Shown in pieces: positions 571 to 55,673 of a stretch of 59,851 nt of DNA. A program made the translations under genes and the position numbers. Below the pieces are notes generated by a model, which ran no database searches, was not told where the DNA came from, and was given only the letters and a program-made list of their open reading frames with translations. Position 1 is the stretch's first letter, and each line of letters starts with the position of its first letter. Source of the stretch: an uncultured Dehalococcoidales bacterium (GTDB lineage: Bacteria; Chloroflexota; Dehalococcoidia; Dehalococcoidales; W111); the NCBI GenBank assembly GCA_964575695.1, contig CAZNSC010000002.1, positions 1 through 59,851 on the forward strand, read 5' to 3'.

Positions 571-770
571 CCTCACCCCCTGTATCCCCCTCTCCTTTGA
601 AGGAGAGGGGAAGGTATTGAAAAGAGGGGCGAAGCCCCTCTTGGACACTCCGTTAAACCAATCTCCTTCAAGGGGGGGTATAGGTTTTGAATGGGTGAAG
701 CCCCTTCAAAGTTTCCTATGGTTTTATTCTGGGAGTAAGGAAAGTTAAAGAGAGGCTTCGCCTCTCTTAA
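571..770. repeat. Intergenic hairpin-repeat cluster 1: module A CCTCACCCCCTGTATCCCCCTCTCCTT-TGA-AAGGAGAGGGG, followed by three module-B hairpins of the type AAGAGGGGC-GAA-GCCCCTCTT
   Basis: Read directly from the sequence. The same two modules recur in at least 14 intergenic regions of this window. Confidence 0.85.
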
Positions 771-839
771 TATAACCAATTCCCCAATTGTCCTGTTGCC
801 GGTTACAGTGCTAAAATTGGGCAAGGAGTATCAGCTATC

Positions 840-1124
840 GTGCGCAAGGACAGATATCAGGCCAGCAGCACGCCAGCGGCGAACGAGCTACACCTTCGCC
901 GGCTCACTGTAGATGAAGCGCTGCTAAAGCTTGACCAGTACCTGAATGACGCCTTCATGGCGGGGCTATATGAGGTTAGGATAATCCATGGTAAAGGAAC
1001 GGGGACTCTGCGCCAGGCGGTTCGTGAATTGCTTGCCAAGCATCCTCTGGTCAAATCATACCGCCGGGGTGTTTATGGTGAGGGGGGTGCTGGGGTCACT
1101 ATGGTAGAACTGGCCCTGAAATAA
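840..1124 (+). CDS. Smr (small MutS-related) domain protein
   Basis: 94 aa with a GTG start. LHLRRLTVDEALLKLDQYLNDAFMAGLYEVRIIHGKGTGTLRQAVRELLAKHPLV is a typical Smr domain with the HGxG motif. Confidence 0.8.
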   Translation: MRKDRYQASSTPAANELHLRRLTVDEALLKLDQYLNDAFMAGLYEVRIIHGKGTGTLRQAVRELLAKHPLVKSYRRGVYGEGGAGVTMVELALK

Positions 1125-1225
1125 TTGTCAGCTCATCGGGATGTAAAAAGTCTAGGAAGGACTTAGCCCCTTTTTCGTAATCTTTCTTCTTCCCGTTTGG
1201 TAATATGAGTCTTTAATCGGGCCGT

Positions 1226-1400
1226 CTCAGAGGGGCTACTGCTCCTCTGAAAATAGATTTTTCCTTCCCCTCAAGGTCGTTTAGTAAAGGGATCAAAAGG
1301 GGGGAAGCCCCTTTAACAAAGTCTCTTCCCTCTCCCCTTATGAAGGGGAGAGGGATAAAGGGTGAGGGGTTGGTAAACAATCTCTCTCCCCTCGCTAATT
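1226..1400. repeat. Hairpin-repeat cluster 2: two module-B variants plus a module A in + orientation (CCCTCTCCCCTTATGAAGGGGAGAGGGATAAAGGGTGAGGGG)
   Basis: Sequence similarity to cluster 1, with inverted-repeat stems read directly. Confidence 0.8.
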
Positions 1401-1427
1401 GAAAGGATAACGGGTTTTAGCTATAAT
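1399..1427 (+). promoter_or_regulatory. Sigma-70-type promoter for the tRNA-His/tRNA-Arg pair (TTGAAA-17 nt-TATAAT)
   Basis: TTGAAA at 1399-1404 and TATAAT at 1422-1427, with a 17-nt spacer. The tRNA starts 20 nt downstream. Confidence 0.6.
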
Positions 1428-1447
1428 AACTATGCCTCTATGTTTAT

Positions 1448-1525
1448 GGTGAGTGTCGCCTAGTGGTTTAAGGCGCCAGGTTGTGGCCCTGGAGAGCGAG
1501 GGTTCGAATCCCTCCACTCACCCCA
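1448..1525 (+). tRNA. tRNA-His (anticodon GTG), with G-1 and encoded CCA
   Basis: Cloverleaf folded by hand. Acceptor stem GTGAGTG/CACTCAC with an extra 5' G pairing C73, anticodon loop TTGTGGC, T-arm GAGGG-TTCGAAT-CCCTC. Confidence 0.9.
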
Positions 1526-1529
1526 ACCT

Positions 1530-1605
1530 GCGCCTATAGCTCAGCGGACAGAGCATCGGTCTTCGGAACCGGGGGTCGTGGGTTCGAATCCCTCTAGGCG
1601 CGCCA
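1530..1605 (+). tRNA. tRNA-Arg (anticodon TCG), encoded CCA
   Basis: Acceptor GCGCCTA/TAGGCGC, D-arm GCTC-AGCGGACA-GAGC, anticodon stem TCGGT/ACCGG with loop CTTCGGA, T-loop TTCGAAT. There is one U-U mismatch in the T-stem. Confidence 0.85.
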
Positions 1606-1639
1606 CCACATCCGGGTTATCAGCCAGCCCGCCGGCTGA

Positions 1640-2329
1640 TCAAACTGGAATCCAGCGTTGGCGCAGGGTGGCAATGAAGTCTTTGACCTGTTGCTCCGTC
1701 CGGGACTTGGTCTTGTCGTAGTGGTCGTAGTGAACCATCTCCTCTCTGCTTCTCACCAGGCGGGGTTTGGGCTCGGTATCAGGATAGCCCACCGCCATCA
1801 TGTCATAAAACTCTAGTTCCCGGGGCACCCCGAGCAGGTCTTTGGCAAGACTTTGCACGTAGGGGGAACGAACGGCGGTGACCCATTGTGCCCCCAGACC
1901 GAGGCTGGTTGCTGCCAGGGTCATGTAAAGAAAAGCACTAGCCAGGCTGGAGTTGAAGATTGAAGTGCCGTGTTGCAGCGTAGTGCTGAGGGGATACGCA
2001 TCCTTGGTTCTGGTATCGCCGCAGAGGATGATGAACACCGGAGCCCGGACATAGCCAGGGGCTGCCCACTTGAACCTCAGCGCCGGCTCCCTGACAACTT
2101 CCATCTTGTGCAGCAGGTTATTATTTTCACTGATCAGCTCGATGATTCTGTCTTTCAGTTCCTGTTTCTTGATGACGATGAATTCCCAGGGTTGTGAGTT
2201 AGCCCCCGATGGTGCCCAGCGAGCCGCCTCAATGATCTTGTCCACATATTCATCGGGGATCGGCTCTGGCTTAAACTTACGGATGCTTCGCCTCTTTTTG
2301 ACCAGCTCCAGAAGACTCTCGTAATCCAT
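1640..2329 (-). CDS. Nitroreductase-family (FMN-dependent) oxidoreductase
   Basis: 229 aa. KKRRSIRKFKPEPIPDEYVDKIIEAARWAPSGANSQPWEFIVI is the nitroreductase N-terminal signature. Confidence 0.85.
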   Translation of the reverse strand: MDYESLLELVKKRRSIRKFKPEPIPDEYVDKIIEAARWAPSGANSQPWEFIVIKKQELKDRIIELISENNNLLHKMEVVREPALRFKWAAPGYVRAPVFIILCGDTRTKDAYPLSTTLQHGTSIFNSSLASAFLYMTLAATSLGLGAQWVTAVRSPYVQSLAKDLLGVPRELEFYDMMAVGYPDTEPKPRLVRSREEMVHYDHYDKTKSRTEQQVKDFIATLRQRWIPV

Positions 2330-3894: not shown

Positions 3895-4010
3895 CAGTCT
3901 TGTCGGACTTATATGGAATTCTGTTATCATTGGGGAATAGACATTCTTAAAGGCAATAATTCACGAAATCAATTACAGGAAGCGGGCCCAAGACACGGAA
4001 GAGATAAAGA

Positions 4011-5414: not shown

Positions 5415-5479
5415 GTCAGCTTCACAGGGCATCAAATTGAGTACGGAGAGCCCAGCGGCGCGCAGATTTCAGATGAGCA

Positions 5480-8720: not shown

Positions 8721-9048
8721 CTTAAGCCTCCTTAATGGTTTATATTTTCCTCCAAAAATTCCAATTAAAAATTTAGCAGGCAGAAACTCAAATAGTCATA
8801 AAACTAGCCCGCAAAACATTACAAATTTGTAACATTTTGTGCTTTACCAGAGACAATAAGTTACGGACTCCAGTTCATCCCTTTCCGAGGGGAAATTTAT
8901 CAAAGAAGGCGGGCGAAGCTCCTTTGAATCTCCTTACGGAACAATTCCGGGTGAGACAATAGACGACCAGTTGACGGCGGGCAGCCGTAGCACTACAATC
9001 GTATGTGTTCATAGCTCAGCTAGAACCTTGTTTAAAAGGAGAAGGCTT

Positions 9049-9543: not shown

Positions 9544-9545
9544 GA

Positions 9546-11064: not shown

Positions 11065-11110
11065 TTTGAAGGGGCTTAGCCCCTTCAAACTTATGCCCTC
11101 TCGAAGGGAG
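11065..11110. repeat. Hairpin-repeat copy (module-B variant TTTGAAGGGGC-TTA-GCCCCTTCAAA plus CCCTCTCGAAGGGAG) just upstream of fabF
   Basis: Read directly. Same family as the other clusters. Confidence 0.7.
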
Positions 11111-17642: not shown

Positions 17643-18548
17643 TCAAGAGCACAGTGCCTCGACAAAAGCTTCGGCGTTAAACGGGGCAACATCCTCCAGC
17701 TTCTCGCCAGTACCGACAAACTGGACGGGTATTCTAAGCTCATCGCAGATAGCCAGCACAATGCCGCCCTTGGCGGTGCCATCCAGCTTTGCCAGGAAGA
17801 TGCCGGTTACCCCCACCGCCTCGGTAAAATATCTGGCTTGGGCCAAGCCATTCTGACCGGTGGTGGCATCAATCACCAGGATTACCTCATGCGGTGCTGT
17901 GGGGTCACCCTTGGCGGCCACTCGCTTGATCTTCTTCAGTTCTTCCATGAGGTTAAACTTGGTGTGCAGCCGGCCGGCGGTATCAATAATTACCTCATCG
18001 GCACCCCGGCTCTGTGCTGCCTGCATGGCGTCATAGACCACCGCCCCGGGGTCCGCCCCGGGCTGGTGGGCGATGACCTCCGCCCCAACTCTCTCCGCCC
18101 AGCGCTGGAGCTGGTCAATGGCCGCTGCCCGGAAGGTATCTGCCGCCGCCAGCAGCACCCGCCTCCCGCCCCTTTTCGACCTGTAAGCAAGCTTGGCAAT
18201 AGAGGTTGTCTTACCACTGCCGTTGACGCCGACGGCAAGAATGACTTTGGGCACCGGTGCCGCAGGCGGCGCTCCTTGATTATCAATCTTCAAGATATTG
18301 ACCATTTCCGTCTGTAATGCCGAGCGCACCAGTGAGCTATCGCTAATCCTCTCCTCCTTTACTTGCTGTTTTACCCGTTCAATCAGCTTTTCGGCAGTGG
18401 TAACACCGACATCGGCGGCGACCAGCAGCTCCTCAAGGTCTGTCCATACCGCCTCATCGATAACAGTGCGGTCAAACAGGCGCATTGCCTTGCTGAACCA
18501 GGTATCACGGCTTCGCTTCAGTGCCTGTTTAATATTTACCAACCTCAC
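17643..18548 (-). CDS. ftsY: Signal-recognition-particle receptor FtsY
   Basis: 301 aa. It has the NG domain with [14 protein letters not shown] and [10 protein letters not shown]. The GTG start lies inside a repeat module. Confidence 0.93.
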
Positions 18549-18770
18549 CCCCTGTATCCCCCTCTCCTTATCTAAGGAGAGGGGGACGGTTTTGGAAGAA
18601 GGGTAAAACCCTTCTTAAACTACCTGCATTTAGTTTTGCCTTGCTCTTTAACTATCCCCTAATATGTTTTAATAAGGGCAGCCCCTCTCACACTCCCTGT
18701 TAGATTAACCTCTTTCAAAGGAGAGGGGGAATTATAAGAGGGGCGTAAGCCCCTCTTGGATTCTCCCCTT
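18543..18770. repeat. Hairpin-repeat cluster 5: module A at the left end, then B-type hairpins and a partial A
   Basis: CCTCACCCCCTGTATCCCCCTCTCCTTATCTAAGGAGAGGGGG; GGAAGAAGGGTAAAACCCTTCTT; TAAGAGGGGCGTAAGCCCCTCTT. Confidence 0.85.
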
Positions 18771-19317: not shown

Positions 19318-19403
19318 CAGGGGGAGTTTGAGGGGGCGCCAGCCCCCTCTCTTAACTTATGTCCCCCTTCCCTTGTAAGGGAAGGGGGTCAGGGGGATAG
19401 GTT
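19318..19403. repeat. Hairpin-repeat cluster 6: B-type GAGGGGGC-GCCA-GCCCCCTC plus A-type CCCCCTTCCCTTGTAAGGGAAGGGGG-TCAGGGGGATAGG in + orientation
   Basis: Read directly. Confidence 0.8.
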
Positions 19404-19443
19404 GCTGGGAATCTGTTCCAGGCTACTCTTGATAAATGACTTT

Positions 19444-27561: not shown

Positions 27562-27893
27562 ACCTCTCACCCCTTTAATCCCCCTCTCCTTCTAAGGAGA
27601 GGGGGAAGAATTTTCTTAAGAGGGACGAAGTCCCTCTTTAACATCCTATAGCTAAAGCTTGTTTTGCCTGCTCTCCCTCTAACGATATATAAGAGGAGCG
27701 TCAGCCCCTCTTTTTTTTCTTTCTCCCTCCTTTGAAGGCGGTTCGAGTTTAAGAGGGGCTTGACGTCCCTCTTTCTTTTTCCTCCCCCTCCTTTGAAGAA
27801 GTGGATAGCGAAGGAGAGTCAAAGAGAGGCGAAGCCTCTCTTACATAAGCAATTCCCCCTCCCTTGGAAAGGGAGGGGGATAAAGGGGGTGGG
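27562..27893. repeat. Hairpin-repeat cluster 7: about 330-bp array of roughly 5 A+B units with inverted A-type termini
   Basis: The left end is ACCTCTCACCCCTTTAATCCCCCTCTCCTTCTAAGGAGAGGGGG. The right end is CCCCCTCCCTTGGAAAGGGAGGGGGATAAAGGGGGTGGGTT, approximately its reverse complement. There are four internal B hairpins. Confidence 0.85.
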
Positions 27894-27908
27894 TTTAATA
27901 AATAATCT

Positions 27909-33995: not shown

Positions 33996-34664
33996 ATGGT
34001 CTACGATTTTCATACTCAAACTTCTCTCAGTGACGGTGCCCTATCGCCGATTGAGCTCATCCGGCGGGCTTCGATTAATGACTATCGTGCCGTGGCTCTT
34101 ACCGACCATGCCTCCTTTGGTGAACTCAGCCGTATAATTGGGGAAACGGCCGAAATTTGCGCTATAGCCCGTTCCCACTGGGATATATTGGCTATTCCCG
34201 GCATAGAACTTACCCACCTTCCGGCTCCTGCCATCGCTGAGGCTGCCAGTAGGGCTAAAGAGCTGGGGGCTTGGATTGTGGCGGTTCATGGTGAGACAAT
34301 TGCCGAGCCGGTAGAAGAGGGCACCAATCTCGCCGCACTCCACAGCCCTGATGTTGACATCCTTGCCCACCCCGGTCTTATCACTCTCGAAGAAGCCAGA
34401 TTAGCCGCCGCTAACGGCATCTTTCTCGAAATCAGTGCTCGAAAAGGACACTGCCTGACCAATGGACACATCGCTTCCCTCGCACAGCAAACAGGAGCCC
34501 GGCTCCTGCTAAACTCTGATGCTCACAGTGAAGAAGATTTGCTCACTACCTCTCTCGCTGATGCTATCAGTCATGGTGCTGGTCTGGGTGATACCGCCTG
34601 CCATCAAATGCTTACCCTAAACCCTGAGGCATTAGTCAGAAAGTTGCCTCACCTCGCTACCTAG
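33996..34664 (+). CDS. PHP-domain (histidinol-phosphatase-like) metal-dependent phosphoesterase
   Basis: MVYDFHTQTSLSDG...LTDH...HGE...AHP...NSDAH is the PHP His/Asp pattern. I place the start at the ATG at 33996; the ORF track gives 33936. Confidence 0.75.
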   Translation: MVYDFHTQTSLSDGALSPIELIRRASINDYRAVALTDHASFGELSRIIGETAEICAIARSHWDILAIPGIELTHLPAPAIAEAASRAKELGAWIVAVHGETIAEPVEEGTNLAALHSPDVDILAHPGLITLEEARLAAANGIFLEISARKGHCLTNGHIASLAQQTGARLLLNSDAHSEEDLLTTSLADAISHGAGLGDTACHQMLTLNPEALVRKLPHLAT

Positions 34665-43731: not shown

Positions 43732-43740
43732 GACTGTTTA

Positions 43741-43826
43741 TCAACCCCATCCCCTGTATCCCCTTCCCCTTTGAAGGGGAAGGGGAAGATAGAGAAAGAG
43801 GGGCGACAGCCCCTCTTAGACGCCTC
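43741..43826. repeat. Hairpin-repeat cluster 8 (left-end A module plus B module); contains the left copy of the direct repeat flanking the R-M islet
   Basis: CAACCCCATCCCCTGTATCCCCTTCCCCTTTGAAGGGGAAGGGGAAGATAGAGAAAGAGGGGCGACAGCCCCTCTTAG. Confidence 0.85.
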
Positions 43827-43924
43827 AGGTACGGGTTTGGGGGGAAGCAAAGCAGAAAACCTTTGGATTCAACAAATGAATATCAAAGAGATGAACCGCA
43901 GGTCTCGTAGAAGGACGGCATAAT

Positions 43925-44578
43925 ATGAAAGCATTTTCACACAAGAAATATCAGATCATTTATGCTGACCCACCGTGGCAGTTTACTGGTCTTGGAAGCA
44001 AGGGCATTCGTTCTGGGAAAATGAGAGAAGATAAGCCGAACCTTCATAGGACAATTCGCCTTGAAGAAAAGTATCCGACTATGACAGTTGACGAGTTAAA
44101 AGCCCTACCAGTCAAGGACTTAGCCGATGAGAATAGCGTTCTTTTTTTGTGGACAACGGATGGGCACTTGCCATTCGCAATAGAAATAATGAGAAGTTGG
44201 GGGTTTGAGTATGCCACTGTTGCCTTTGTGTGGAATAAAAAAGAAAAAAGCGGTAAGCAAGTTTGCTATTATGGTTATTGGACAATGAAGGGAACGGAAC
44301 TCTGTTTGTTAGGTCGCCGGGGTAAGGTAAAACCAGTTGCACACAATGTGAGACAACTGGTGGAAGCAACAAGAAATAAACATAGCCAAAAACCAGATGA
44401 GGTGAGAGATAGAATAGTTGAGCTAATGGGGGACTTGCCTCGTATAGAACTATTTGCCCGTAAAAGGACACTTGGATGGGATGTTTGGGGTAATGAGGTG
44501 GAAGACCTACAAGAAGCTGGTAGCGATGGGAAACCTGTGATAATTCGCAGGCAGCCGCAATTAATACTTGTTGAATGA
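43925..44578 (+). CDS. MT-A70-family N6-adenine DNA methyltransferase (DPPW motif)
   Basis: 217 aa. It contains YQIIYADPPWQF, LFLWTT, WDVWGNE and a HSQKPDE motif, all characteristic of MT-A70/Ime4-like bacterial methyltransferases. Confidence 0.85.
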   Translation: MKAFSHKKYQIIYADPPWQFTGLGSKGIRSGKMREDKPNLHRTIRLEEKYPTMTVDELKALPVKDLADENSVLFLWTTDGHLPFAIEIMRSWGFEYATVAFVWNKKEKSGKQVCYYGYWTMKGTELCLLGRRGKVKPVAHNVRQLVEATRNKHSQKPDEVRDRIVELMGDLPRIELFARKRTLGWDVWGNEVEDLQEAGSDGKPVIIRRQPQLILVE

Positions 44579-44591
44579 AGGAGAGAACAGT

Positions 44592-45305
44592 GTGGCTAAG
44601 AAACATCAACTCCGTGAAATCCGTACCGGAACCATCATCAATGTAACGTCGCAGAAACAAGAGACCGAGATAATCCAAGCTCTGATACGGGTAGTAGAGT
44701 ACTTGGGTAGCAAGTTCAATAAGAAGGTCGCACTTTTTCATGAGAAACGATGGCATCTCAAGGATATAGTCGCAGAACTTCGACATACATACCCCGATAT
44801 TGAGTTCGACTATCATTTCGACACAAGCTCGATTAGACCGGACGGGGGCATCCTCTATATTCGCGGACAGCCAGGAGACAAGCTATCGTACCCCATCTTG
44901 ATTGCTGAAGTGAAGAATCAGGGTACTAATGTTTTACGTGCTGAAGAAGGTCTTCCAAAGCAAGCAAAAGGTAATGCCATCGAGCGACTTGGCAAGAATC
45001 TGATTGGTCTACGGACTGCCCTAATGCGAGAGAGTGTCTTCCCATTCGTGTGTTTTGGGTATGGTTGTGATTTTGAGTCAGATTCGTCAATTTTAGATAG
45101 GGTCACCACGATGGCAATGTTCGGGAAGCTTAACAAGACATACTTACACAATGAGCAAGGCGGGAGATTTAGTAGGGGGAGTTTCTATTTTAGGCCAGAA
45201 AAGTGGTCTGTGGATGAGATGTACGAAATTATGAAGGATATTGCTGAGCGGTCTATCTTATATTACTTCTCAAAATACAAGGAGAGCCATTTCCGACAGG
45301 TGTGA
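44592..45305 (+). CDS. EcoRI-family type II restriction endonuclease
   Basis: The translation aligns by eye to EcoRI. SSIRPDGGILYI matches SSIKPDGGIVEV. LIAEVKNQG matches LVAEAKHQG (the PD...E-x-K catalytic core). AKGNAIERLGKN matches AAGNAIERSHKN. ESVFPFVCF matches ESHFPYVLF. ILDR matches ILNR. The likely start is GTG 44592 after GGAGAG; the ORF track's TTG 44568 overlaps the M gene by 11 nt. Confidence 0.85.
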   Translation: MAKKHQLREIRTGTIINVTSQKQETEIIQALIRVVEYLGSKFNKKVALFHEKRWHLKDIVAELRHTYPDIEFDYHFDTSSIRPDGGILYIRGQPGDKLSYPILIAEVKNQGTNVLRAEEGLPKQAKGNAIERLGKNLIGLRTALMRESVFPFVCFGYGCDFESDSSILDRVTTMAMFGKLNKTYLHNEQGGRFSRGSFYFRPEKWSVDEMYEIMKDIAERSILYYFSKYKESHFRQV

Positions 45306-45366
45306 TAGAGACCATGACTATTTAGGCAACCTACTGACTTTTTGTGCAAGTGGCACTTTTAAGGCA

Positions 45367-45531
45367 GAGCCCTTTGAAGGGGAAGGGAAGATAGAGAAAG
45401 AGGGGCTATCGCCCCTCTAAACTCCCTGACTGCCATTCAAGAGTAAGGAGAGTTGAAGAGAGGCGGAGCCTCTCTTACCAAATCTTTCCCCCTCTCCTTG
45501 CCAAGGAGAGGGGGATTGAGGGGGTGAGGTT
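45367..45531. repeat. Hairpin-repeat cluster 9 (right copy of the islet-flanking repeat, a B module, and a right-end A module ...AAGGAGAGGGGGATTGAGGGGGTGAGG)
   Basis: Read directly. Confidence 0.85.
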
Positions 45532-45637
45532 AATAAGTAAGTCTCAAGGGAGAAGAACTGTCTAGCCTTCCCTTGATAAACGGCCTTTGTTTTGGGCCAG
45601 GATGGTATTGGAATAATCACATAAATAGAGCTAAAAG

Positions 45638-47248
45638 ATGAAAAGAATCGTATATACAGTCATTTCACTGGTATTGATAGGTGGCCTGCTGGCGTTATAC
45701 CTGCCCACCGCTATCTTCCAGCCGGTGCCGAAAGAAACGTCGACCCTTGCTGCTGAAGAAAAGGTTCTCAATCTGTATGGCACTGACCCGTTCACGCTTG
45801 ACCCGGCGGTATCCGGTGAAATGACGTCACATAACTATATCATGCAGCTATTTGGCGGGCTGGTTCGTATTGACGATAATCTGGAGCCAGTCCCCGATAT
45901 TGCCCAGAGGTGGCAGGTCAGTAATGACGGTAAGACATATACCTTTTATCTCCGAAATGATGTCAGTTTTCACGACGGACGGCAGGTTAAAGCCGGGGAC
46001 TTTAAGTACTCCTGGGAGCGGGCATGTGCTCCGGAGACTCGGTCGCTGACGGCGGCTACTTATCTGGGGGATATTGTCGGGGTGAAAGAGGTGCTGGCTG
46101 GTGAGAGTAAGGAGATAAGCGGCGTCAGGTTTATCGATGATTTTACCCTGGAGGTAACTACAGATGCCCCCAAGTCTTACTTCTTATCCAAGCTGACCTA
46201 TCCGACTGCTTTCGTGGTGGATAGAGCCAATGTGGAATCGGGGGGGGAGTGGTGGCGTCATCCCAATGGCACCGGCCCGTTCAAACTTCGGCAGTGGGAC
46301 GAGAATAGCCTGCTTCTTCTGGAGAGGAATGAGCATTACCACGGGGAAGTGGCTAAGGTTGACTTGATTGCCTTCCATCTGTGGGGTGGCGTGCCCATGA
46401 ATCTCTATGAGACCGGAGAGATTGATGTCGCCGGTGTCTCCTCTTACTATATAGACAGGGTTCAGGATAGGGCGGGCCCCTTCTATCAGGAGCTGGATAT
46501 AGTCCCCGAGCTGAGCTTTTACTACATCGGTTTCAACACTACTAGGCCGCCGTTTGATGATGCTAATATCCGCCGTGCCTTCTCCCAGGCTATTGATAAG
46601 GACAAGCTGGTTTCTCTGGTGTTCCGCGGAATGGTGCAGCGAGCCGACGGCATCCTGCCTCCAGGTATTCCCGGCTACAACGAGGGCTTGCACGGGCTGG
46701 AATTCAACATTGCCAGAGCGAAGGAACTGATTGCCAATTCCAGGTACGGTGATGTCTCAAAGTTGCCACCAATCACCGTTACCACCATGGGCTGGGGAGG
46801 TCTGATATCACCCGAGCTGGAGGCTATCGTTCATGAGTGGCGGCAGAACCTTGGCGTCGAAGTAAAGGTAAGGCAGTTGGAGCCGCAAAGGTTCCTCTAT
46901 CACCTTACTCAGGAGAAGGACGAGATGTTCTATCTTGGCTGGGTGGCCGACTACCCGCATCCCCAGGATTTCCTCGATGTCCTGTTCCATACCGGAGTCG
47001 ATAATAACCACGGCGAGTATAGTAACCCCGAGGTGGATAGTCTGCTGGAGAAGGCCGGTGTCGAGCAGGATAATGAGCTAAGTCTGGCATTATATCAGCA
47101 GGCGGAGCAAAAACTGGTTGATGACGCCGCCTGTCTGCCGCTATTGTTCGGGCAGAATTATATTCTGGTTGAGCCGTACGTCAAGGGTTACCACCTGAAC
47201 GGGATGGGCCTTGCCTGGTTAAACACTGTCTCCATTGAGTCTCATTAG
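45638..47248 (+). CDS. ABC-transporter substrate-binding protein, family 5 (peptide/nickel type); paralogue of 5480-7150
   Basis: 536 aa with an N-terminal signal anchor. It shares long identical stretches with the other SBP, for example YPTAFVVDRANVESG and HPNGTGPF.LRQW. Confidence 0.85.
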   Translation: MKRIVYTVISLVLIGGLLALYLPTAIFQPVPKETSTLAAEEKVLNLYGTDPFTLDPAVSGEMTSHNYIMQLFGGLVRIDDNLEPVPDIAQRWQVSNDGKTYTFYLRNDVSFHDGRQVKAGDFKYSWERACAPETRSLTAATYLGDIVGVKEVLAGESKEISGVRFIDDFTLEVTTDAPKSYFLSKLTYPTAFVVDRANVESGGEWWRHPNGTGPFKLRQWDENSLLLLERNEHYHGEVAKVDLIAFHLWGGVPMNLYETGEIDVAGVSSYYIDRVQDRAGPFYQELDIVPELSFYYIGFNTTRPPFDDANIRRAFSQAIDKDKLVSLVFRGMVQRADGILPPGIPGYNEGLHGLEFNIARAKELIANSRYGDVSKLPPITVTTMGWGGLISPELEAIVHEWRQNLGVEVKVRQLEPQRFLYHLTQEKDEMFYLGWVADYPHPQDFLDVLFHTGVDNNHGEYSNPEVDSLLEKAGVEQDNELSLALYQQAEQKLVDDAACLPLLFGQNYILVEPYVKGYHLNGMGLAWLNTVSIESH

Positions 47249-47251
47249 CGG

Positions 47252-47448: not shown

Positions 47449-47530
47449 GGGGGTTGAAGGGGCTTCGCCCCTTCAACAACTACATCTCCCACTCTCCTTT
47501 GAAGGAGAGGGGGACTAAGGGGGTGAGGTT
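47449..47530. repeat. Hairpin-repeat cluster 10 (a B module plus an A module in + orientation); it supplies the last codons and the stop of the Mo-enzyme gene
   Basis: GTTGAAGGGGCTTCGCCCCTTCAAC ... CTCTCCTTTGAAGGAGAGGGGGACTAAGGGGGTGAGG. The CDS on the minus strand ends ...KTSPP-TAG inside it. Confidence 0.85.
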
Positions 47531-49578
47531 TTAGCCCTTTTTATCCGGCAGGGCAGGGCTTTGAGCTGCGTGTACCCCGTAATCGGGTCACGGAGCTCCA
47601 GCTCGGTCAGCGCATTGACATTAGCCTGAGACCAGCCGTGGGGGGTGCTGACTACCCCAGGTGCCAGGTCTTCAGTTGTCCTGACTCTCATTCTTATTTC
47701 GCCCTTCCTTGTTGCTATCGCCGCCATGTCGCCATCAGCAATGCCGTATTCTTGGGCGGTGGCGGGGTGAATTTCGGCTAGCGGTTCCGGGACTGCCTCC
47801 CGCAGTGCCAGCACATTTCTGAACTGGGTGTGGGTATATCCCAGAATCCGGGTGCCGGTAATCAGGATCAAAGGATACTCCGTATGCAGGCTACCGACCT
47901 TTCCGAAGCTCGGCTCGATATACACCGGCAGCGGGTCGTATCCATGGTCGGCTAATGTCTGTGAGTAAAGCTCGATTTTCCTTGACGGGGTCCGGAACTC
48001 ACCCTTGCGGCACAGGTCATATTTCTTCCCGGTAAAGAAGGTGCCCTCGGGGTTTTGCTCTCTTAGCTGCTCAGCAGTTAGCCCGGTAGGCTTTAGCCAG
48101 TGTCCCACGACCTCATCATCGGTCTGCCACGGGAAGAGGTCTTCATATCCCATCCGTCTCCCCAGCCCGCACCAGAACTTCCAGTCAGGCCAGCATTCCC
48201 ACAGTGGCTCGATTACCTTCTTACGGAGCAGGAGGTAGGGTAGGCCGCTTGTTACCGCATAAATATAGCCGACCCCACTGCGCTCCATAAACGAGCAGGC
48301 GGGGAGCACGATGTCCGCCATCTGTGCGGTCTCGGTCATAAACAGGTCAATAACCACCAGAAGCTCCAGCTTCTCCATTGCCTGCTTCATGCGGTTGGCA
48401 TCAGGGAGGGTGACTGCCGGGTTACCGCCGGTGACAATCAGGGCTTTGATAGGGTATGGCTTCTCCTCAAGTATGGCGTCCGCCAGATACATTGCCTGAC
48501 CATAGGGGGATTGTCTGCCCCAGAGCTGGTAGAACAACGGGTGCTCGGCAACGCCGATAGGGTCTTCATCTACCTTGATGTGGAGGCTACCCAGGCGGGG
48601 GAAGGAGACGGCAGACCATCCCCCGGGCACATCAACATTCCCGGTAACTGCTTGTAGGATGGCAATGGCGCGGTTGGTCTGCAAGCCGTTCACCTGCTGG
48701 TCGAGGGCACAGACACCCTGGACGATGGACGCCGGCTTGGCGGCGGCAAATATCCGGGCAATCCTTCTTATATCGTCGGCAGGCACCCGGGTTATACTCT
48801 CCACCTTCTCTGGAGAGTATTGCTTGACATGCTCGGCGAGCTTATCGAAGCCAGTAGTGTACCTGGCCATGAATTGTTTATCGTAGAGGTCTTCAGAGAT
48901 GATAACATTGAGCATACTCAGAGCCAGGGCACAATCGGTGCCCGGTCTTATCGGGATATGTATCCCCCTTTTTGCCAGTGGTGTCCGCCTGGGGTTGATG
49001 ACGATTAGCTCCAGCCCCTCGTCCAGGGCTTTATAGAGCTTGCTGGCCAGTGGCAGCTTTGAGTTATCCGGGTCGTGCCCCCAGAGTATGGCGCACTTCG
49101 CCCTTTCCGGCTCCTCCAGAAGGAAGGTGCCGAAGGTTAGCTGGTGGGCAAGGATGCGGGAGCGGTAGCAGTTGCTCTCCACGGACAGGAAGTTGGGCGT
49201 GCCGTAGGCGCCGCGAAAGCGGCGGGCGAACGCCGCCAGTTCGTTATTTTCGACACCGATTGAGCCGCAGAAGATGGCCAGGGCATGGGCGCCGTATTCG
49301 TCCTTGATTTGCTGTAGCTTACCGGCTATGGTATCCAGGGCTTCGTCCCATGAGATTCTCTCCCAGCCGCTGTTTATCTTCTTTATCGGGTATTTCAGGC
49401 GGTCTGGTGAATAGATGTAGTCCACTAGGTGCTCACCCCTGGGGCATAGGACCCCCTGATTTAAGGGGTGCTCGGCCATCCCCTCCACCCTGACCAGCCG
49501 CCCGTCCTCAACGTGGGCATTGATGCCGCAGCCCCAGACACACAATATGCAATCGGTCTTAATGACTTTCTTATCCAT
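47515..49578 (-). CDS. Molybdopterin (bis-MGD) oxidoreductase, DMSO-reductase superfamily, apparently cytoplasmic and stand-alone
   Basis: It has an N-terminal 4Fe-4S motif (C-x2-C-x3-C: DCILCVWGCG...C) and a long MopB body. A Cys candidate Mo ligand lies in GTPNFLSVESNCYRS. There is no twin-arginine signal. I place the start at the ATG at 49578; the ORF track gives 49596. Confidence 0.85.
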   Translation of the reverse strand: MDKKVIKTDCILCVWGCGINAHVEDGRLVRVEGMAEHPLNQGVLCPRGEHLVDYIYSPDRLKYPIKKINSGWERISWDEALDTIAGKLQQIKDEYGAHALAIFCGSIGVENNELAAFARRFRGAYGTPNFLSVESNCYRSRILAHQLTFGTFLLEEPERAKCAILWGHDPDNSKLPLASKLYKALDEGLELIVINPRRTPLAKRGIHIPIRPGTDCALALSMLNVIISEDLYDKQFMARYTTGFDKLAEHVKQYSPEKVESITRVPADDIRRIARIFAAAKPASIVQGVCALDQQVNGLQTNRAIAILQAVTGNVDVPGGWSAVSFPRLGSLHIKVDEDPIGVAEHPLFYQLWGRQSPYGQAMYLADAILEEKPYPIKALIVTGGNPAVTLPDANRMKQAMEKLELLVVIDLFMTETAQMADIVLPACSFMERSGVGYIYAVTSGLPYLLLRKKVIEPLWECWPDWKFWCGLGRRMGYEDLFPWQTDDEVVGHWLKPTGLTAEQLREQNPEGTFFTGKKYDLCRKGEFRTPSRKIELYSQTLADHGYDPLPVYIEPSFGKVGSLHTEYPLILITGTRILGYTHTQFRNVLALREAVPEPLAEIHPATAQEYGIADGDMAAIATRKGEIRMRVRTTEDLAPGVVSTPHGWSQANVNALTELELRDPITGYTQLKALPCRIKRAKTSPP

Positions 49579-49586
49579 ACACCACA

Positions 49587-49616
49587 ATTGTAGCATTTGC
49601 CGAGACTGATTCTCAA
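49587..49616 (-). promoter_or_regulatory. Candidate promoter for the Mo-oxidoreductase gene (TTGAGA-18 nt-TGcTACAAT), 8 nt upstream of the ATG
   Basis: Minus-strand TTGAGA (49611-49616) and TACAAT (49587-49592). The ATG is at 49578. Confidence 0.4.
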
Positions 49617-49630
49617 AGCTAGTGGGGGTT

Positions 49631-49950
49631 CTACCTCACCCCCTGTGGTTCCTCCCCTCGGTTCCCCTCCTTTTGAAATCCATCCCCCTGGCCCCCTTCC
49701 TTTCAAGAAGAAGGGGAGAGGTTTTGGGAAGAGGGGCTGGCGCCCCTCTTAAACACCCCGCTTTGGGGGGAGTATAAATCTCTCTCGGTCTCCCTTTAAT
49801 AAAGGGAGACGGCCCATCTTGCAGGTCTCTGTCTCCCCCTTTGAAAAAGGGGGACTAAGGGGGATTTTAAGGGAGAAAAAGAAAGAAGGGCGAAGCCCCT
49901 CTTAATATAAATTTTACCCTTACCTTCACCAATCCCCAAGGGAAGGAGGT
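49631..49950. repeat. Hairpin-repeat cluster 11 (about 320 bp, multiple A/B modules and degenerate copies)
   Basis: CTACCTCACCCCCTGTGG...; GGAAGAGGGGCTGGCGCCCCTCTTAA; TCTCCCCCTTTGAAAAAGGGGGACTAAGGGGGAT; AGAAGGGCGAAGCCCCTCTTAA. Confidence 0.8.
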
Positions 49951-50046: not shown

Positions 50047-51294
50047 CTACTTAATTACCTTCTTACCCACATAGGGTTGTAGCACGTCGGGGACTAAAAT
50101 AGTGCCGTCAGCTTGCTGGTAGTTCTCTAAAATGGCGATGACCACTCGCGGCAAAGCCAGCCCCGACCCATTCAAAGTGTGGACAAACTGGGGTCGACTT
50201 TCCGGGGAGGGGCGGTAGCGGATGTTGGCCCGCCTCGCCTGAAAATCACCGCAGTTGGAGCAGGAGCTTACCTCCAGCCATTCCCCACAGCCGGGAGCCC
50301 ACATCTCAATGTCGTAGGACTTGGTTGAGGCGAAGCCCAAGTCGGCGGTGCAGAGCTGCTTTATCCGGTAGGGAAGCCCCAGCCTCTGAGAGACCTCTTC
50401 AGCATCGCTGACCATTTTTTCCAGCTCTTCGTCTGAGGCGGCGGGCTCGGTGAATTTGTATAGCTCTACCTTGTCAAACTGGTGCCCCCGCTTTATGCCC
50501 CGCGTGTCCTTCCCCGCCGACATCTTCTCCCGGCGGAAGCAGGCGGTGTAGGCGACATAATAGATGGGCAGGATTCCCGGCGACATGATTTCATCACGGT
50601 GGAGGTTGGTGAGGGGCACCTCAGCCGTAGGCACAAACCAGAAGTCGTCCTCTTCATCATGGTACAGGTTATCGGCAAACTTGGGCAGATTACCCGAGCC
50701 GACCATGCACTCCCGCTTGACCATAAATGGCGGGTATATCTCCTGATATCCGTGCTCCGCAGTGTGCAGGTCGAGCATGAAGGAGATAAGGGCTCTCTCC
50801 AGCCGGGCACCCAAACCCTTGAGCACATAGAAGCGGCTGCCGGATAGCTTCACTCCCCGCTCAAAATCAATGATGCCCAGAGATTCCCCCAGCTTCCAGT
50901 GGGGGGCGGGCTCGAAGTCAAACTTTTTGGCCTCCCCCCAGGAGCGCAGCACGACATTATCATCCTCGCTCGTCCCTACGGGCACGGCCGGGCTGGGGAT
51001 ATTGGGCACCTGCAATAGCAATGCCTCCAGTTGCTCATCCAGGCTTCTGACCTCTTCCTCTAGGGCTCTTATCTTCTCACGCAGCAGGCGCCCCTGTTCT
51101 ATGGTCTCCTTACCCATTTTCCTTTCCCGCCCCGCCTCTTTTCGGACGTGGCGGAAACCCTCCAGTTCCAGCACCTTCTGGCGCCGTTCCTGGTCAAGGT
51201 CTAAGATTTTATCAAGGGGTGCCGTATCGTGGCGGTTGGCTATTGCCTGCCGCACCGGCTCTATATTTTCCCGGATAAACTTCAGGTCAAGCAT
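50047..51294 (-). CDS. serS: Seryl-tRNA synthetase
   Basis: 415 aa. It has an N-terminal coiled coil ([10 protein letters not shown]) and class II motifs (FRRE..., GSGLALPR). Confidence 0.96.
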
Positions 51295-51302
51295 AATTTT
51301 TC

Positions 51303-51415
51303 TACCTCACCCCCTGTGTCCCCCTCTCCTTCAAAGGAGAGGGAGAAGGGTTCTATAAGAGGGACTTCGTCCCTCTAAAACTTCCTAAAATATCTGGGGC
51401 TTCGCCTCTCTTTGA
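51303..51415. repeat. Hairpin-repeat cluster 12 (an A module plus two B modules), immediately upstream of serS
   Basis: CTACCTCACCCCCTGTGTCCCCCTCTCCTTCAAAGGAGAGGGAG; TAAGAGGGACTTCGTCCCTCTAA. Confidence 0.85.
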
Positions 51416-51445
51416 CTCTCCTCCACAAGTCGGGGTATCAATTCC

Positions 51446-52957: not shown

Positions 52958-53036
52958 CTCTGTCCTGTTTCCATGTGATTTAGCCAAAAGACTGAAAGCC
53001 TCTCACCCTTCAGTCGTAAATTGTCTGCTTTGGTTA

Positions 53037-53849
53037 TTATATGGCATCTTTGTCCGGTAGTAAACTGATTCGGTCAGGTGGCGTCTTCTCAATCTGCCCA
53101 CGCAGACTGTCCATCCAGACGGCTGACTTTAGCTCCCGTTCAAGAAGGTATTTCAGATAATTTCTCATCACTCCTTCCATCTCCCGGGATAGCTCCGGGA
53201 TCAACCTCAGCCGGCTGGCTGTGCCATAATCGCTATTCTGCAAAAGTCGCAGCACCTTCAACCCATTAACCGAGAGGGGGTAGGTCAACGATAGGCTCTG
53301 GCCGCAGTCGGGGCACAGCACACCACCGGCGCTGGGGCAGAATGAGTTGGTGATTGGCTTGAGGGTTGAGTGGCAGGAGACACACCGCTGAAGCTGGGGT
53401 CGGTAGCCAGCTTCATCAAGGAGGTGAAGTTCAAAGTAACGCAGCGCCAGCCCGTTGTCACCACCCTGGCACAGGCGGTGCATTAGCTCCAGGAGTAACT
53501 GGAACAACGGGTGATCTTCGACCTGGTCGGCGGTAAACTGGTCAACCAGCTCGGTGGCATAGAGACCACAGGAGGTAAGCCATAGTGCACTCTTTAAGGG
53601 CAGGAAGCTGTTGATGGTCTGACTCCCGGTTATGGTGTCCAGATTCCGTCCCCGAGCCAGCGAAACCAGGCTGTGGGTGAGCAGTTCCAGGTGCCCGGCG
53701 AGCTTGCTTCTGGGGCGCCTTACCCCCTTGGCGACGGCTCTGATCTTGCCCAGGTGCGGGGTATAGAGGGTAAGGATTCTATCCGCCTCCCCGAGCTTAA
53801 TCTTCTTGATAATAATGGCTTCTGTCTGATAGGTTCGTGGCTTGGACAT
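53037..53849 (-). CDS. recO: DNA repair protein RecO
   Basis: 270 aa. It has an OB-fold N-terminus (EAIIIKKIKLGEADRILTLYT...GKIRAVAKG) and a Zn-finger (C-x2-C...C-x2-C: CVSCHS...CPDCG). Confidence 0.9.
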   Translation of the reverse strand: MSKPRTYQTEAIIIKKIKLGEADRILTLYTPHLGKIRAVAKGVRRPRSKLAGHLELLTHSLVSLARGRNLDTITGSQTINSFLPLKSALWLTSCGLYATELVDQFTADQVEDHPLFQLLLELMHRLCQGGDNGLALRYFELHLLDEAGYRPQLQRCVSCHSTLKPITNSFCPSAGGVLCPDCGQSLSLTYPLSVNGLKVLRLLQNSDYGTASRLRLIPELSREMEGVMRNYLKYLLERELKSAVWMDSLRGQIEKTPPDRISLLPDKDAI

Positions 53850-53853
53850 GTTT

Positions 53854-54951
53854 CTAATAGACCTGCCTCACCCCCTGAAGTCTTTTCACTGCATCGCGGG
53901 CAATTGCCGGGTTTATTTCGAAACCCGTGCCGTTCCGTCCCAGGTCTATCGCTGCCTTCAGCATCGTCCCCGAGCCCAGGAATGGGTCAAGCACTGTTTC
54001 ACCCACATAACTGTATGCCTTAATCAACTTGTAAGGTAATTCGTAAGGGAAGGGGGCGACATGGTTTCTGCTGTCACCGCTCCCCGCAGGCTTCATCAGC
54101 CAGACATCGCTGTTCTTTATGGAAAGCCAGAAGTCCTTATCCAGCCGGGACTGCTCTTTCTGCTCCTTTGTGAGGTGCTGGTATTTCTTGACCCCTTTAG
54201 AAGAAGGCTTCTCAAACTCCAGGATGAACTCGTGCATGTTATTTATCAGAATGCCGCCGGGGTAAGGATAGGTGCCAAAATGGGCTCTTACGGCATTGGT
54301 CTTGTGCCAGACAATGTCCCTTTTGAAAATAAACCCGATTCTTTCGCATACATCTATTGTTCTGCCCATTAGATTCAGCGACCTGAACCCTTCCCCACCT
54401 CTTAGGGGCAAGTTCATAATATTGATAAAGGCTTTTCTCCCCGGCTGCAATACCCGATAAACTTCACGCCATACTTTTGAAATTTCATCAAACCACTCAT
54501 CCAGGTCATGGATATTCCCCAAGTCGCTTTCTACTGGCCTATCGGAATACATCTTGGCATTGTAATAGGGCGGTGAGGTTATCATTAAGTGGACTGAGCT
54601 ATCAGCGACCTCAAGCATATCTTGGGCGTTCTTGACGTAGACCTTTTGCGTGGTATTGTTTATCTCGATGATATTCTCTTGTGGTATGTCGATTTTATCT
54701 TGCTGTAAAGTTGGTTCTTCTGGCCTATGCCTCTCTAGATCATCAATACTGAAGCGCTGCTGACCGCTGGCGGCGATGGCTGCTTTGAGCTGGTTCTTTT
54801 TTACCAGGCTGTGGATGGTGGACACAGTAGTACCGAGAAATCTCGCGGCTTCAACCGCCGATAGATAACTTCTATCCTGATAGCCGCTGGTGTCACCTGA
54901 TTTTGCCTTACCTGGTTGTTCTGTCACATTGGCAAGACCCCGTTTATTCAA
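53854..54951 (-). CDS. Beta-class DNA methyltransferase (SPPY catalytic motif; N4-cytosine or N6-adenine) with an N-terminal excisionase/MerR-type HTH; no cognate nuclease seen
   Basis: 365 aa. The HTH is LSAVEAARFLGTTVSTIHSLVKKNQL. Motif IV (ITSPPYYN) precedes motif I (VLDPFLGSGT), which is the beta-class permutation. The start is TTG. Sampled lines gave 43-50% G+C. Confidence 0.85.
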   Translation of the reverse strand: MNKRGLANVTEQPGKAKSGDTSGYQDRSYLSAVEAARFLGTTVSTIHSLVKKNQLKAAIAASGQQRFSIDDLERHRPEEPTLQQDKIDIPQENIIEINNTTQKVYVKNAQDMLEVADSSVHLMITSPPYYNAKMYSDRPVESDLGNIHDLDEWFDEISKVWREVYRVLQPGRKAFINIMNLPLRGGEGFRSLNLMGRTIDVCERIGFIFKRDIVWHKTNAVRAHFGTYPYPGGILINNMHEFILEFEKPSSKGVKKYQHLTKEQKEQSRLDKDFWLSIKNSDVWLMKPAGSGDSRNHVAPFPYELPYKLIKAYSYVGETVLDPFLGSGTMLKAAIDLGRNGTGFEINPAIARDAVKRLQGVRQVY

Positions 54952-54963
54952 GGTCGTTTAGTG

Positions 54964-54995
54964 ACCTCACCCCCTGTGCCCCCCCTCTTACTTTC
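54964..54995. repeat. Partial A-module repeat (CCTCACCCCCTGTGCCCCCCCTCTTAC) upstream of the methyltransferase gene
   Basis: Read directly. Confidence 0.7.
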
Positions 54996-55004
54996 CTCAA
55001 AAAC

Positions 55005-55613
55005 CTAAAATTCCTGCCTGCCCTCAAGGGCCCGGGTGAGGGTAATGTCATCGGCGTATTCCAGCTCGGTGCCAAAGGGCAGCCCCCGGGCAAGGCGGGT
55101 GCCCAGAGGTGAAATCAGGTGGTTGAGGTACATTGCGGTCTGTTCACCCTCAAGATTGGGGTTGGTGGCGAGGATGACCTCAGTTACCGAGCTACCCTGT
55201 AACCGGCTCATGAGCTCGTTGATTCTGACGTCGTTAGCCCCCACCCCCTCGGTAGGCGAGATGGCGCCGTGGAGCACATGGTACAGTCCCTTATAGGTCT
55301 TGGTGTTCTCCAGAGCCAGGATGTCCTGTGGCTGCTCAACGACACAAATCTTGCCCGGCTCCCGCTCACTGCTGCGACAGATAGGGCACGGGTCAGAGTC
55401 AGTGATATTGAGGCAGACCGAGCACAGTGTGACCTTCTGTTTTAACGACGATATTGCCTCAGCTAATAGCCTGGCTTGCTCCTCGGAGGCACGCAGCAGG
55501 TAGTAGGCGAGTCGCTGGGCGCTCTTGGGCCCGATGCCGGGCAGCTTGTTGAGCTCCTGGATGAGCTTGGATACCGCTTCCGAGGTAGGTATCAGACCGT
55601 GGTTCAACCTCAC
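55005..55613 (-). CDS. recR: Recombination protein RecR
   Basis: 202 aa. It contains [17 protein letters not shown] (HhH), a Cys4 Zn-finger ([16 protein letters not shown]) and a Toprim domain. The predicted GTG start lies inside a repeat module. Confidence 0.93.
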
Positions 55614-55673
55614 CCCCTTTATCCCCCCTTGAAGGAGGGGGATATTTTATTAAGAGGGGCGAAGCCCCTCTTA
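55608..55673. repeat. Hairpin-repeat cluster 14 (an A module plus a B module), overlapping the recR start
   Basis: CCTCACCCCCTTTATCCCCCCTTGAAGGAGGGGGAT...TAAGAGGGGCGAAGCCCCTCTTAG. Confidence 0.85.

Follow-up and report, generated by a model that had tools for sequence, protein, structure and literature searches.

Two-domain intergenic repeats with predicted intrastrand triplex motifs in an uncultured Dehalococcoidales bacterium

Introduction

What are the hairpin repeats that recur between the genes of an uncultured Dehalococcoidales bacterium, and what keeps their sequence in order? The question is raised by a stretch of 59,851 nucleotides from contig CAZNSC010000002.1 (GenBank assembly GCA_964575695.1), referred to here in its entirety as the window, in which a first-pass annotation described two hairpin modules: module A, a C-rich tail followed by a 10–11-bp hairpin, and module B, a 9-bp hairpin. 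These were likened to repetitive extragenic palindromic (REP) sequences and bacterial interspersed mosaic elements (BIMEs) and were thought to form a lineage-specific system, possibly dependent on a REP-associated tyrosine transposase (RAYT) encoded elsewhere. The analysis reported here leads to a different description, in which the family consists of ~100-nt non-coding intergenic units, each probably carrying two triplex motifs of the BoxC/PIT/TMECO class, with the fold a likely object of selection. Repeats of the BoxC, PIT and triplex-motif type have been known since the 1990s; we know of no explanation of their function, their means of spread or their structure in vivo.

Results

Modules A and B are halves of one unit

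The assembly analyzed (labelled G000) is a metagenome-assembled genome (MAG) of an uncultured Dehalococcoidia bacterium comprising 3.36 Mb in 342 contigs. Both modules are real. The module A arm CCCCCTCTCCTT was found 13 times in the window at one mismatch or fewer, against 0.86 expected, and the exact module B pattern 5 times, against 0.00 expected. The earlier count of more than 20 module B copies is consistent with a hairpin scan of the window, which gave 20 B-type hairpins, one of them (at 34490) lying within a gene and probably unrelated; the stem variants named at the time (AAGAGAGGC/GCCTCTCTT, TGAAGGGGC/GCCCCTTCA and AAGAGGGAC/GTCCCTCTT) were all present. Among all perfect 8-bp hairpins of the assembly, the commonest stems were those of modules B and A.

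An iterated nhmmer profile returned 374 matches in the assembly, of which 270 were non-overlapping and 182 were full units. Coding overlap of the matches averaged 5%, with 95% intergenic (gene calls for this and all other context counts came from a crude ORF (open reading frame) model of our own), which bears out the view of a dispersed, intergenic, palindromic mosaic family. Given that A and B always occur in the same order, joined by an AT-rich spacer of ~12 nt, they are better regarded as two halves of a single unit of ~95–110 nt than as separate modules.

On the C-rich strand the unit reads H1 (12–13 nt), a 3-nt linker, pyrimidine arm Y1, a 3–4-nt loop, purine arm R1, the spacer, R2, a 3–4-nt loop, Y2, a short linker and H2 (6–8 nt); the G-rich strand reads RH2-R2-Y2 ... 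Y1-R1-RH1. Y and R arms pair as a hairpin in each domain, and the loop of hairpin A measured 3–4 nt in 153 of 179 units. In an alignment of 48 copies, 97.1% of cells held standard Watson-Crick pairs and 8 of the 19 pairs varied on both sides (65 cells), as compared with at most 4 pairs and 11 cells in slid registers; the compensatory stem changes reported previously are therefore genuine. Predicted DNA fold energies of −23.8 and −23.2 kcal/mol were obtained for the two strands, with z = −5.5 and −4.8, respectively. B loops genome-wide were mainly TTC (36) or GAA (20). Since these are mutually reverse complementary, the palindromic stem of B appears to change direction with respect to hairpin A. 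The GAA loop yields GCGAAGC, which we take to be the very stable DNA mini-hairpin d(GCGAAGC). [quoted passage not shown]

A third block mirrors each hairpin

H1 had been taken for a mere C-rich tail. Instead, it repeats the 5' arm of hairpin A in mirror image and varies in step with it. At least 7 distinct arm types each have a tail mirrored at 0 mismatches across 12–13 positions, as in the arm/tail couples TCCCCCTCTCCTT/AACCTCACCCCCT, TCCCCTTCCCCTT/AACCCCATCCCCT, TCCCTCTCCCCTT/AACCCCTCACCCT and TCCCCCTCTCCC/CCCTCACCCCCT. The same correspondence is evident in matched pairs about a short middle, namely CCTCACCCCC-TGTAT-CCCCCTCTCC, CCCCTCACCC-TTTAT-CCCTCTCCCC, CCCCATCCCC-TGTAT-CCCCTTCCCC and TCCATCCCCC-TGA-CCCCCTTCCCT, and where the outer TT of one arm type has become CC, the tail changes correspondingly from AA to CC. 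Mirror symmetry beside a hairpin is characteristic of intrastrand triple helices; dimeric protein sites and template switching create inverted repeats, never mirror repeats.

Triads were scored in the 155 units with a good hairpin A. Under purine-motif rules the best mirror run had a median of 12 triads and a mean of 10.9, as against means of 8.6 when direct repeats served as the control and 6.2 when tails were shuffled, and the linker between arm and third block was 3 nt in 127 units. The purine motif fitted 91.6% of the 1899 triads and the pyrimidine motif 74.0%; 74 units were perfect under the purine motif, and 119 had at most one incompatible triad. When the columns of the 48-copy alignment were tested in the same way, 94.8% of 618 cells were compatible and 6 of 13 positions changed jointly (50 cells). 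Slid registers reached no more than 57.7% compatibility, with at most 4 jointly changing cells, and permutation of tails among the copies gave 83.5% (maximum 86.6%), with 0 of 300 trials reaching the observed value.

Two other arrangements were considered and rejected. The pyrimidine-motif triplex, which is compatible with RNA, gave the poorer fit, approximately half of the third-block letters facing A-T pairs being A on the C strand (A 334, T 287). Watson-Crick pairing of the tail with R1 produced ~7 of 10 pairs by hand, as compared with 12–13 of 13 in the mirror register. That the third block tracks its hairpin exactly in each subfamily argues that the triplex-capable fold, and not the hairpin alone, is the conserved feature.

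Hairpin B has a third block of its own. The 6–8 nt downstream of it track the stem type, AAGAGGGGC occurring with ACACCCC, AAGAGAGGC with ACTCTCC, AAGAGGGAC with ACACCCT and AAAGGGGC with AATCCC. At least 6 of 7 triads were compatible in 84 of 124 units, and the mean of 5.73 compares with 5.26 for permuted (maximum 5.37) and 4.25 for shuffled blocks. Y, R and mirror third block, the defining set of the BoxC class, thus lie on one strand in both the A and the B/H2 domains, and two purine-motif intrastrand triplex motifs, one of class I and one of class II, are predicted on the G-rich strand of each unit.

Comparison with known repeat classes

The BoxC repeat of Escherichia coli has been re-described as TMECO, 5'-CCCTCNCCC-N3-6-GGGNGAGGG-N3-GGGNGAGGG (Holder 2015, NAR 43:10126, PMC4666352), and, according to the citation in that paper, as the PIT element by Hoyne & Maher 2000. 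In vitro, the TMECO strand on its own folds stably into a class II purine-motif triplex, as judged by circular dichroism and nuclear magnetic resonance; the element is always intergenic, more often upstream than downstream of ORFs, and its inverted pairs always combine type A with type B (PMC4666352). An association of the motif with local genomic instability has been described, its mobilizing enzyme being not known (PMC4666352).

The units described here share with BoxC, PIT and TMECO the consecutive order of Y arm, R arm and mirror G-rich third block on one strand; the short loops of the class, with a first loop of 3–4 nt and a linker of 3 nt; an intergenic location more often upstream of ORFs; multi-copy occurrence and inverted pairs of two types; the lack of a known transposase; and an association with local rearrangement. 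Subfamily 3 even holds the E. coli blocks CCCTCTCCC/GGGAGAGGG/GGGTGAGGG verbatim. A TMECO pattern with relaxed loops (3–12 and 3–6 nt) had 18 matches in the genome, all but one in subfamily 3, and its reversed control had 0. Given that the other subfamilies use different block sequences, the units belong to the same class as TMECO but not to the same sequence family. They also differ from TMECO in having 12–13 triads rather than 9 and in carrying, at constant spacing, a further and smaller triplex hairpin (B + H2) together with conserved flanks, which brings the length to ~100 nt as against 34–37 nt. Their density is about 10-fold or more above that in E. coli (~180 full units across contigs totalling ~1.3 Mb versus 23 in 4.6 Mb), and the host belongs to the Chloroflexota rather than to the Proteobacteria or cyanobacteria. 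In short, the BoxC-type class is already known; what is new is the two-domain architecture of its Dehalococcoidia variant.

What the units have in common with REP/BIME repeats (those of E. coli and the REPINs of Pseudomonas) is that they are short, numerous and imperfectly palindromic, lie between genes, build mosaic clusters and pair two types in inverted doublets. By contrast, the present units lack a RAYT, have homopurine/homopyrimidine stems with a mirror third block, and are longer and composed of two domains. Because a mirror-symmetric third block co-varies with each hairpin, the nearest class is BoxC/PIT/TMECO and not REP/BIME. Bacterial MITEs such as Correia/NEMIS, RU-1/ERIC and Nezha are likewise intergenic, 100–350 bp long and polymorphic for presence or absence, and can supply expression signals to their neighbors; one subfamily here has ends resembling terminal inverted repeats (TIRs), with possible target-site duplications at a few copies. 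Unlike MITEs, the family shows no family-wide TIR signal and no visible parent insertion sequence (IS), and it has internal mirror symmetry.

Copies within the window

Profile matches were obtained in 11 of the 14 intergenic regions originally listed, the other three (8880–8935, 11065–11110 and 54964–54995) holding degenerate or partial remnants only. The statement that the repeats occupy most intergenic regions was too strong: of the 31 gaps in the window that measure 40 nt or more, 11 are occupied, corresponding to ~20% of intergenic bases. In what follows, a plus sign denotes a unit with its C-rich strand on the forward strand.

A full subfamily 1 unit lies at 565–653 (+; nhmmer 73 bits, exact B match) and is made up of H1 ACCTCACCCCCT (570–581), the linker GTA, Y1 (585–597), R1 (600–611), hairpin B with a GAA loop (622–642) and H2 ACACTCC (645–651). 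It shares its gap with a solo B hairpin of the AAGAGAGGC type (748–768, within 737–784, −). The profile match at 1273–1386 (−) is a full subfamily 3 unit with its core at 1286–1376, positioned ~60 nt upstream of tRNA-His. On the forward strand it reads CCCTCTCCCC-TTATGAA-GGGGAGAGGG-ATAAA-GGGTGAGGGG and includes the three E. coli TMECO 9-mers; the relaxed TMECO pattern matches at 1328–1368, the 15-bp inverted ends are TIR-like (GAGATTGTTTACCAA type), and the 7-bp direct repeat TCCCCTC occurs at 1266–1272 and 1387–1393.

Further profile matches comprise a full subfamily 1 unit at 18536–18626 (+), the tail of which (GGGGGTGAGG on the gene strand) contains the GTG predicted as the start of gene 17643–18548, on the minus strand and presumably ftsY; a partial unit at 18711–18766 (+), consisting of an R1 arm and a B hairpin (18736–18757); and a full subfamily 4 unit at 19320–19404 (−) with a CCCCCTTCCCTT arm and a AACCTATCCCCC tail. 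A 336-bp composite of mixed orientation spans 27566–27901. Its full unit at 27566–27649 (+) and inverted full unit at 27812–27901 (−) direct outward tails toward both flanking genes, and its interior contains a partial unit (27745–27805, −) and B-type hairpins at 27691–27712 and 27751–27773.

Full subfamily 2 unit 43738–43826 (+) is the left-hand member of an inverted pair split by a restriction-modification islet. To the right, at 45371–45536, a duplicated R1-spacer-B segment (45371–45427, +) is followed by an inverted full subfamily 1 unit (45445–45536, −), with its tail toward the downstream gene 45638–47248. The full unit at 47449–47531 (−) has a TGAAGGGGC-type B and a tail that overlaps the 3' end of minus-strand gene 47515–49596. 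Next comes a mixed cluster at 49631–49950, in which a solo tail remnant (49631–49673) and a full unit (49674–49760, +) are accompanied by a partial A (49802–49864, −) and a partial unit (49882–49950, −). A full subfamily 1 unit with a AAGAGGGAC-type B at 51299–51387 (+) has its tail 9 nt from the start of gene 50047–51294, and in the full unit at 55604–55682 (+), which has a short A stem, the start of the gene that we take to be recR (55613 or 55607) is in or abuts the tail. Two elements gave no profile match, namely the solo tail-plus-arm remnant ACCTCACCCCCTGTGCCCCCCCTCTT at 54964–54995 (+), which lacks the purine arm, and a solo B-type hairpin, TGAAGGGGC-TTA-GCCCCTTCA, found by the hairpin scan at 11067–11087 with the strand unassigned.

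Orientation and gene starts

In co-directional gene contexts the G strand was the sense strand in 81 of 115 units. No replication-strand bias was observed, the G strand coinciding with the locally G-skewed strand in 90 cases and with the opposite one in 81. Tails pointed toward gene starts 131 times and toward gene ends 70 times. Of 82 single units, 61 had the tail toward a gene start and 45 were arranged as gene end, B..A, tail, gene start; the tail-to-start gap had a median of 30 nt and a lower quartile of 4 nt, and the median B-to-start gap was 117 nt.

On the sense strand the outer block, GGGGGTGAGG(TTG), is one base off the canonical GGAGGTGA. The predicted starts of both ftsY (GTG, 18546–18548) and recR (GTG/TTG, 55607–55613) are located inside the outer block GGGGGTGAGGTTG. 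At recR in the same-family genome G001 there is no repeat, and the start carries a GAGGAGGG Shine-Dalgarno sequence of its own; in the window genome the repeat has therefore replaced the native translation-initiation region. We infer that selection screens insertions, favoring those in which start codons are preceded by the Shine-Dalgarno-like face instead of its complement, and that certain units have come to serve as ribosome-binding sites by co-option.

Runs of at least 4 T followed hairpin A in 52 of 155 units in the C-strand sense and in 0 of 155 in the G-strand sense, and followed hairpin B in 13 of 126 units in the G-strand sense. Terminator-like sites were not enriched in the window (27 versus 19.8 ± 4.2). 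An intrinsic (Rho-independent) terminator was therefore rejected as a description of the units, T tracts following the hairpins in a minority only.

Gain, loss, pairing and cassettes

Genomes of the same family show synteny with the window, at 75–80% identity. In G001 and G002 the orthologous spacer upstream of recR is short and lacks the unit, with no base-exact junction at this divergence. The site beside gene 50047–51294 is occupied in all four genomes compared, by different subfamilies and B stems, which suggests repeated targeting or gene conversion.

In close pairs the tails always face outward (16 clean pairs plus others, none with inward tails), and such outward-facing pairs were found in 28 clusters, mostly with subfamily 1 combined with another type. 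A nested composite, in which a subfamily 2 unit with its own flanks sits inside a subfamily 1 unit at the H1-Y1 linker, was located at C51:6823, C67:14185, C91:9491, C91:11105, C114:929, C140:2046, C26:9374 and C8:41625 (contig:position). Given its recurrence on several contigs, composites seem to be copied as such.

The islet in the window (43830–45366, +) is of low GC content, interrupts the inverted repeat pair, and contains the genes 43925–44578 and 44568–45305, presumably encoding an MT-A70-like methyltransferase and an EcoRI-like nuclease, respectively. Its flanks carry a 50-bp direct duplication of the loop-R1-spacer-B segment (43767–43816 and 45370–45418; 46 of 50 positions identical by BLAST), and the B loop of one copy is inverted with respect to the other. 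The composite that the islet splits is present in uninterrupted form on contigs C10 and C21. On contig C15, the sole DUF559 (Vsr-like) gene of the genome (32299–32625, minus strand, 116 aa) is bracketed by an outward subfamily 1 tail and arm and by an inverted subfamily 2 unit. All 4 strong DUF559 loci detected in the order (this genome, G006, G028 and G036) are flanked by triplex-type motifs. Wide outward pairs mainly bracket ordinary housekeeping genes. A 277-aa gene, to the product of which no function was assigned, abuts the DUF559 gene of C15.

Distribution among genomes and within the assembly

A covariance model built from the 48 copies was run on 40 genomes sampled from the same order, each of its own GTDB family or genus and together spanning 38 families; absence from a MAG means here that a feature was not found among the MAGs searched. 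Matches were obtained in 32 of the 40, many of which reached the scoring cap even at 0.8–1.2 Mb (about 100 copies in genomes of this size), and the same subfamilies with the same mirrored tails recurred in other families of the order. No match was obtained in 8 of the 40, complete single-contig genomes among them, nor in any of five complete genomes of family f10. When 120 genomes of the phylum were scanned, 5 matched: 1 of the window's order, 2 of another order of the class and 2 from outside the class. The family is therefore not the lineage-specific system originally envisaged.

Within the MAG, all repeat matches were confined to 81 contigs (1.27 Mb), and contigs of up to 80 kb had none. 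Repeat-bearing contigs (C2, C24, C26, C33 and C35, for example) formed the tighter tetranucleotide cluster. Among the repeat-free contigs (such as C1, C3, C4, C5 and C7), 12-kb samples of C1 and C3 had almost no homologs in three same-family genomes; repeat-bearing C2 was syntenic with same-family genomes at 75–80%, and C7 was intermediate. The bin measures 3.36 Mb, and its relatives 1.2–2.0 Mb. The tRNA sets of repeat-bearing and repeat-free contigs were complementary, with 1 of 41 anticodons shared, which argues against two complete genomes in the bin; it either includes a large repeat-free accessory genome or is a composite.

Discussion

The reading that we favor is that a triplex-capable fold, present twice in each unit, is what selection has probably preserved. 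When the G-rich strand becomes transiently single-stranded (as the non-template strand in transcription, or in replication or repair), each hairpin would fold and its third block would lie antiparallel to the purine arm in the major groove, giving G.G-C, A.A-T and T.A-T triads. Selection, or a copying process that depends on the fold, would keep the three blocks matched. Units would be gained and lost at intergenic sites and would serve as preferred places for recombination and cassette insertion, recombination or gene conversion between units being a candidate for the copying agent. Orientation would be filtered by selection, such that the G-rich strand is usually sense and places GGGGGTGAGG, which comes close to a perfect Shine-Dalgarno sequence, shortly before the gene that follows. 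That a stable triplex forms in vivo is a more doubtful matter, somewhat less likely than not. More tentative still, and on balance rather doubtful, is the proposal that the intrastrand DNA triple helix is itself selected in living cells, which would make the units functional and not junk; it is put forward because the three-way changes are coupled in two domains and the types are kept across many families.

Several points weigh against this reading. The triplex fold is deduced from covariation and from work in E. coli, where DMS (dimethyl sulfate) footprinting in vivo saw no triplex and double-stranded DNA remained duplex (PMC4666352). Given that copies inside one subfamily are related by descent, the evidence that is independent comes down to some 7 arm types in A and some 4 types in B, and not to hundreds of copies; moreover, the third-block signal of module B is weaker than that of A (5.73 against 5.26 permuted). 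Horizontal spread, and not selection on a fold, could account for how nearly identical the consensus is from one GTDB family to another, and 30% of units in co-directional contexts are oppositely oriented. Owing to the greater length of stems and loops here, the strict TMECO pattern was matched 0 times in the window. Finally, third blocks face outward in the pairs described here and inward in those of E. coli, as at hrpB-mrcB, where no B-like hairpin is present.

The first-pass annotation had proposed a REP/BIME system moved by a RAYT of the IS200/IS605 Y1 type. Intergenic palindromic repeats, inverted doublets of two types and one full Y1_Tnp gene in the genome are in keeping with that proposal. 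The gene in question (C215:232–669, minus strand), however, encodes the 145-aa TnpA of an ordinary IS200 (160–780) that is AT-rich relative to the genome and has unrelated hairpins of its own, ACCACCGCCAGAGGCGGTGG (166–186) and ACCACTACCAGAGGTAGTGG (752–772); neither module A nor module B was found beside it. Only 5 of the 40 relatives have Y1_Tnp, four of these having few (1–31) or no repeat matches, and it occurs in repeat-free G039 and G040 yet was absent from the repeat-richest genomes searched (G002, G010, G020, G023, G030, G031, G033 and G035). Since REPs also have no counterpart to the mirror third block, we consider a RAYT-driven origin very improbable. The units might instead be MITEs, that is, deletion derivatives of an IS that are moved in trans by a TIR-recognizing DDE transposase and leave target-site duplications. 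Subfamily 3 does have ~15-bp inverted ends (GAGATTGTTTAsCAA ... TTsGTAAACAATCTC), with matching changes at both ends in one copy (C228), and 6–7-bp direct repeats flank 3 of its 9 complete copies (TCCCCTC in the window, TGTGCC and TGGC[T/C]CA; the copies other than that of the window are on C24 and C42). Presence/absence differences of units between genera point the same way. Family-wide, however, the flank-versus-flank inverted-repeat score was 5.77 as against 5.47 for shuffles, with only 6 of 174 units scoring at least 9, and family-wide TIRs were rejected as a candidate, the feature being limited to subfamily 3. No parent IS with GAGATTGTTTA ends was seen, target-site duplication is not evident for most copies, some 100 copies are found in genomes of 0.8–1.2 Mb, and a TIR model leaves the mirror symmetry unexplained. 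A MITE origin for the family is accordingly judged improbable, and there is a slim chance that a DDE transposase is the agent that copies subfamily 3.

A role exerted mainly at the RNA level, in 5'-untranslated or intercistronic regions, through a ribosome-binding site, mRNA stability or termination, would accord with an orientation that follows transcription (81/115) and not replication. It would also accord with the position of the tail, which faces the gene start in 61 of 82 single units (a quarter within 4 nt, median 30 nt) and harbors the ftsY and recR starts; with GGGGGTGA, one base from canonical GGAGGTGA; and with the T runs after hairpin A in 52 of 155 units in the C-strand sense. Against this, the purine motif outperforms the pyrimidine motif (91.6% versus 74.0%) and RNA, according to a published report (PMC4666352), does not form purine-motif triplexes, so that an RNA role would leave the mirror covariation unexplained. 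In addition, T runs follow B in only 13 of 126 units in the dominant orientation, terminator-like sites are not enriched in the window, and E. coli PIT elements showed neither promoter nor terminator activity (PMC4666352). As the main explanation an RNA element seems unlikely. Selfish nuclease cassettes (DUF559/Vsr-like, HNH or restriction enzymes) offer a further possibility that is compatible with the triplex-fold reading. Here the units would be the ends or targets of the cassettes: a unit would be cut, and repair would copy cassette and repeats together, as in a REP-RAYT system with a different enzyme. The bracketed DUF559 gene of C15, the motifs at 4 of 4 strong DUF559 loci and the restriction-modification islet inside a pair with a 50-bp unit duplication all conform to such a scheme. 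But DUF559 occurs in only 5 of 41 genomes, one of these (repeat-free G038) giving merely a weak partial match, and it was not found in the repeat-richest genomes, including MAGs that are 91–96% complete; it cannot, therefore, at present be called the mobilizing enzyme. Cassettes may merely land in recombinogenic repeats, and most wide outward pairs surround housekeeping genes. We regard both the cassette-end or target role and copying by cut and repair as possible, though not likely.

Hundreds of copies of several subfamilies in tiny genomes constitute a dense natural experiment, in which orientation obeys a rule tied to transcription and ribosome-binding sites. The units also matter for annotation, because they seed spurious ORFs, affect predicted start codons and can be mistaken for lineage-specific REPs, and their uneven spread over contigs may flag heterogeneous MAG bins. 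If the triple helix is indeed selected, the family would provide comparative evidence for triplex selection in the cell, which the E. coli BoxC experiments could not show. The units might then be recognition or landing sites for small nucleases such as DUF559, or might act co-transcriptionally, coupled to the ribosome-binding site that they supply.

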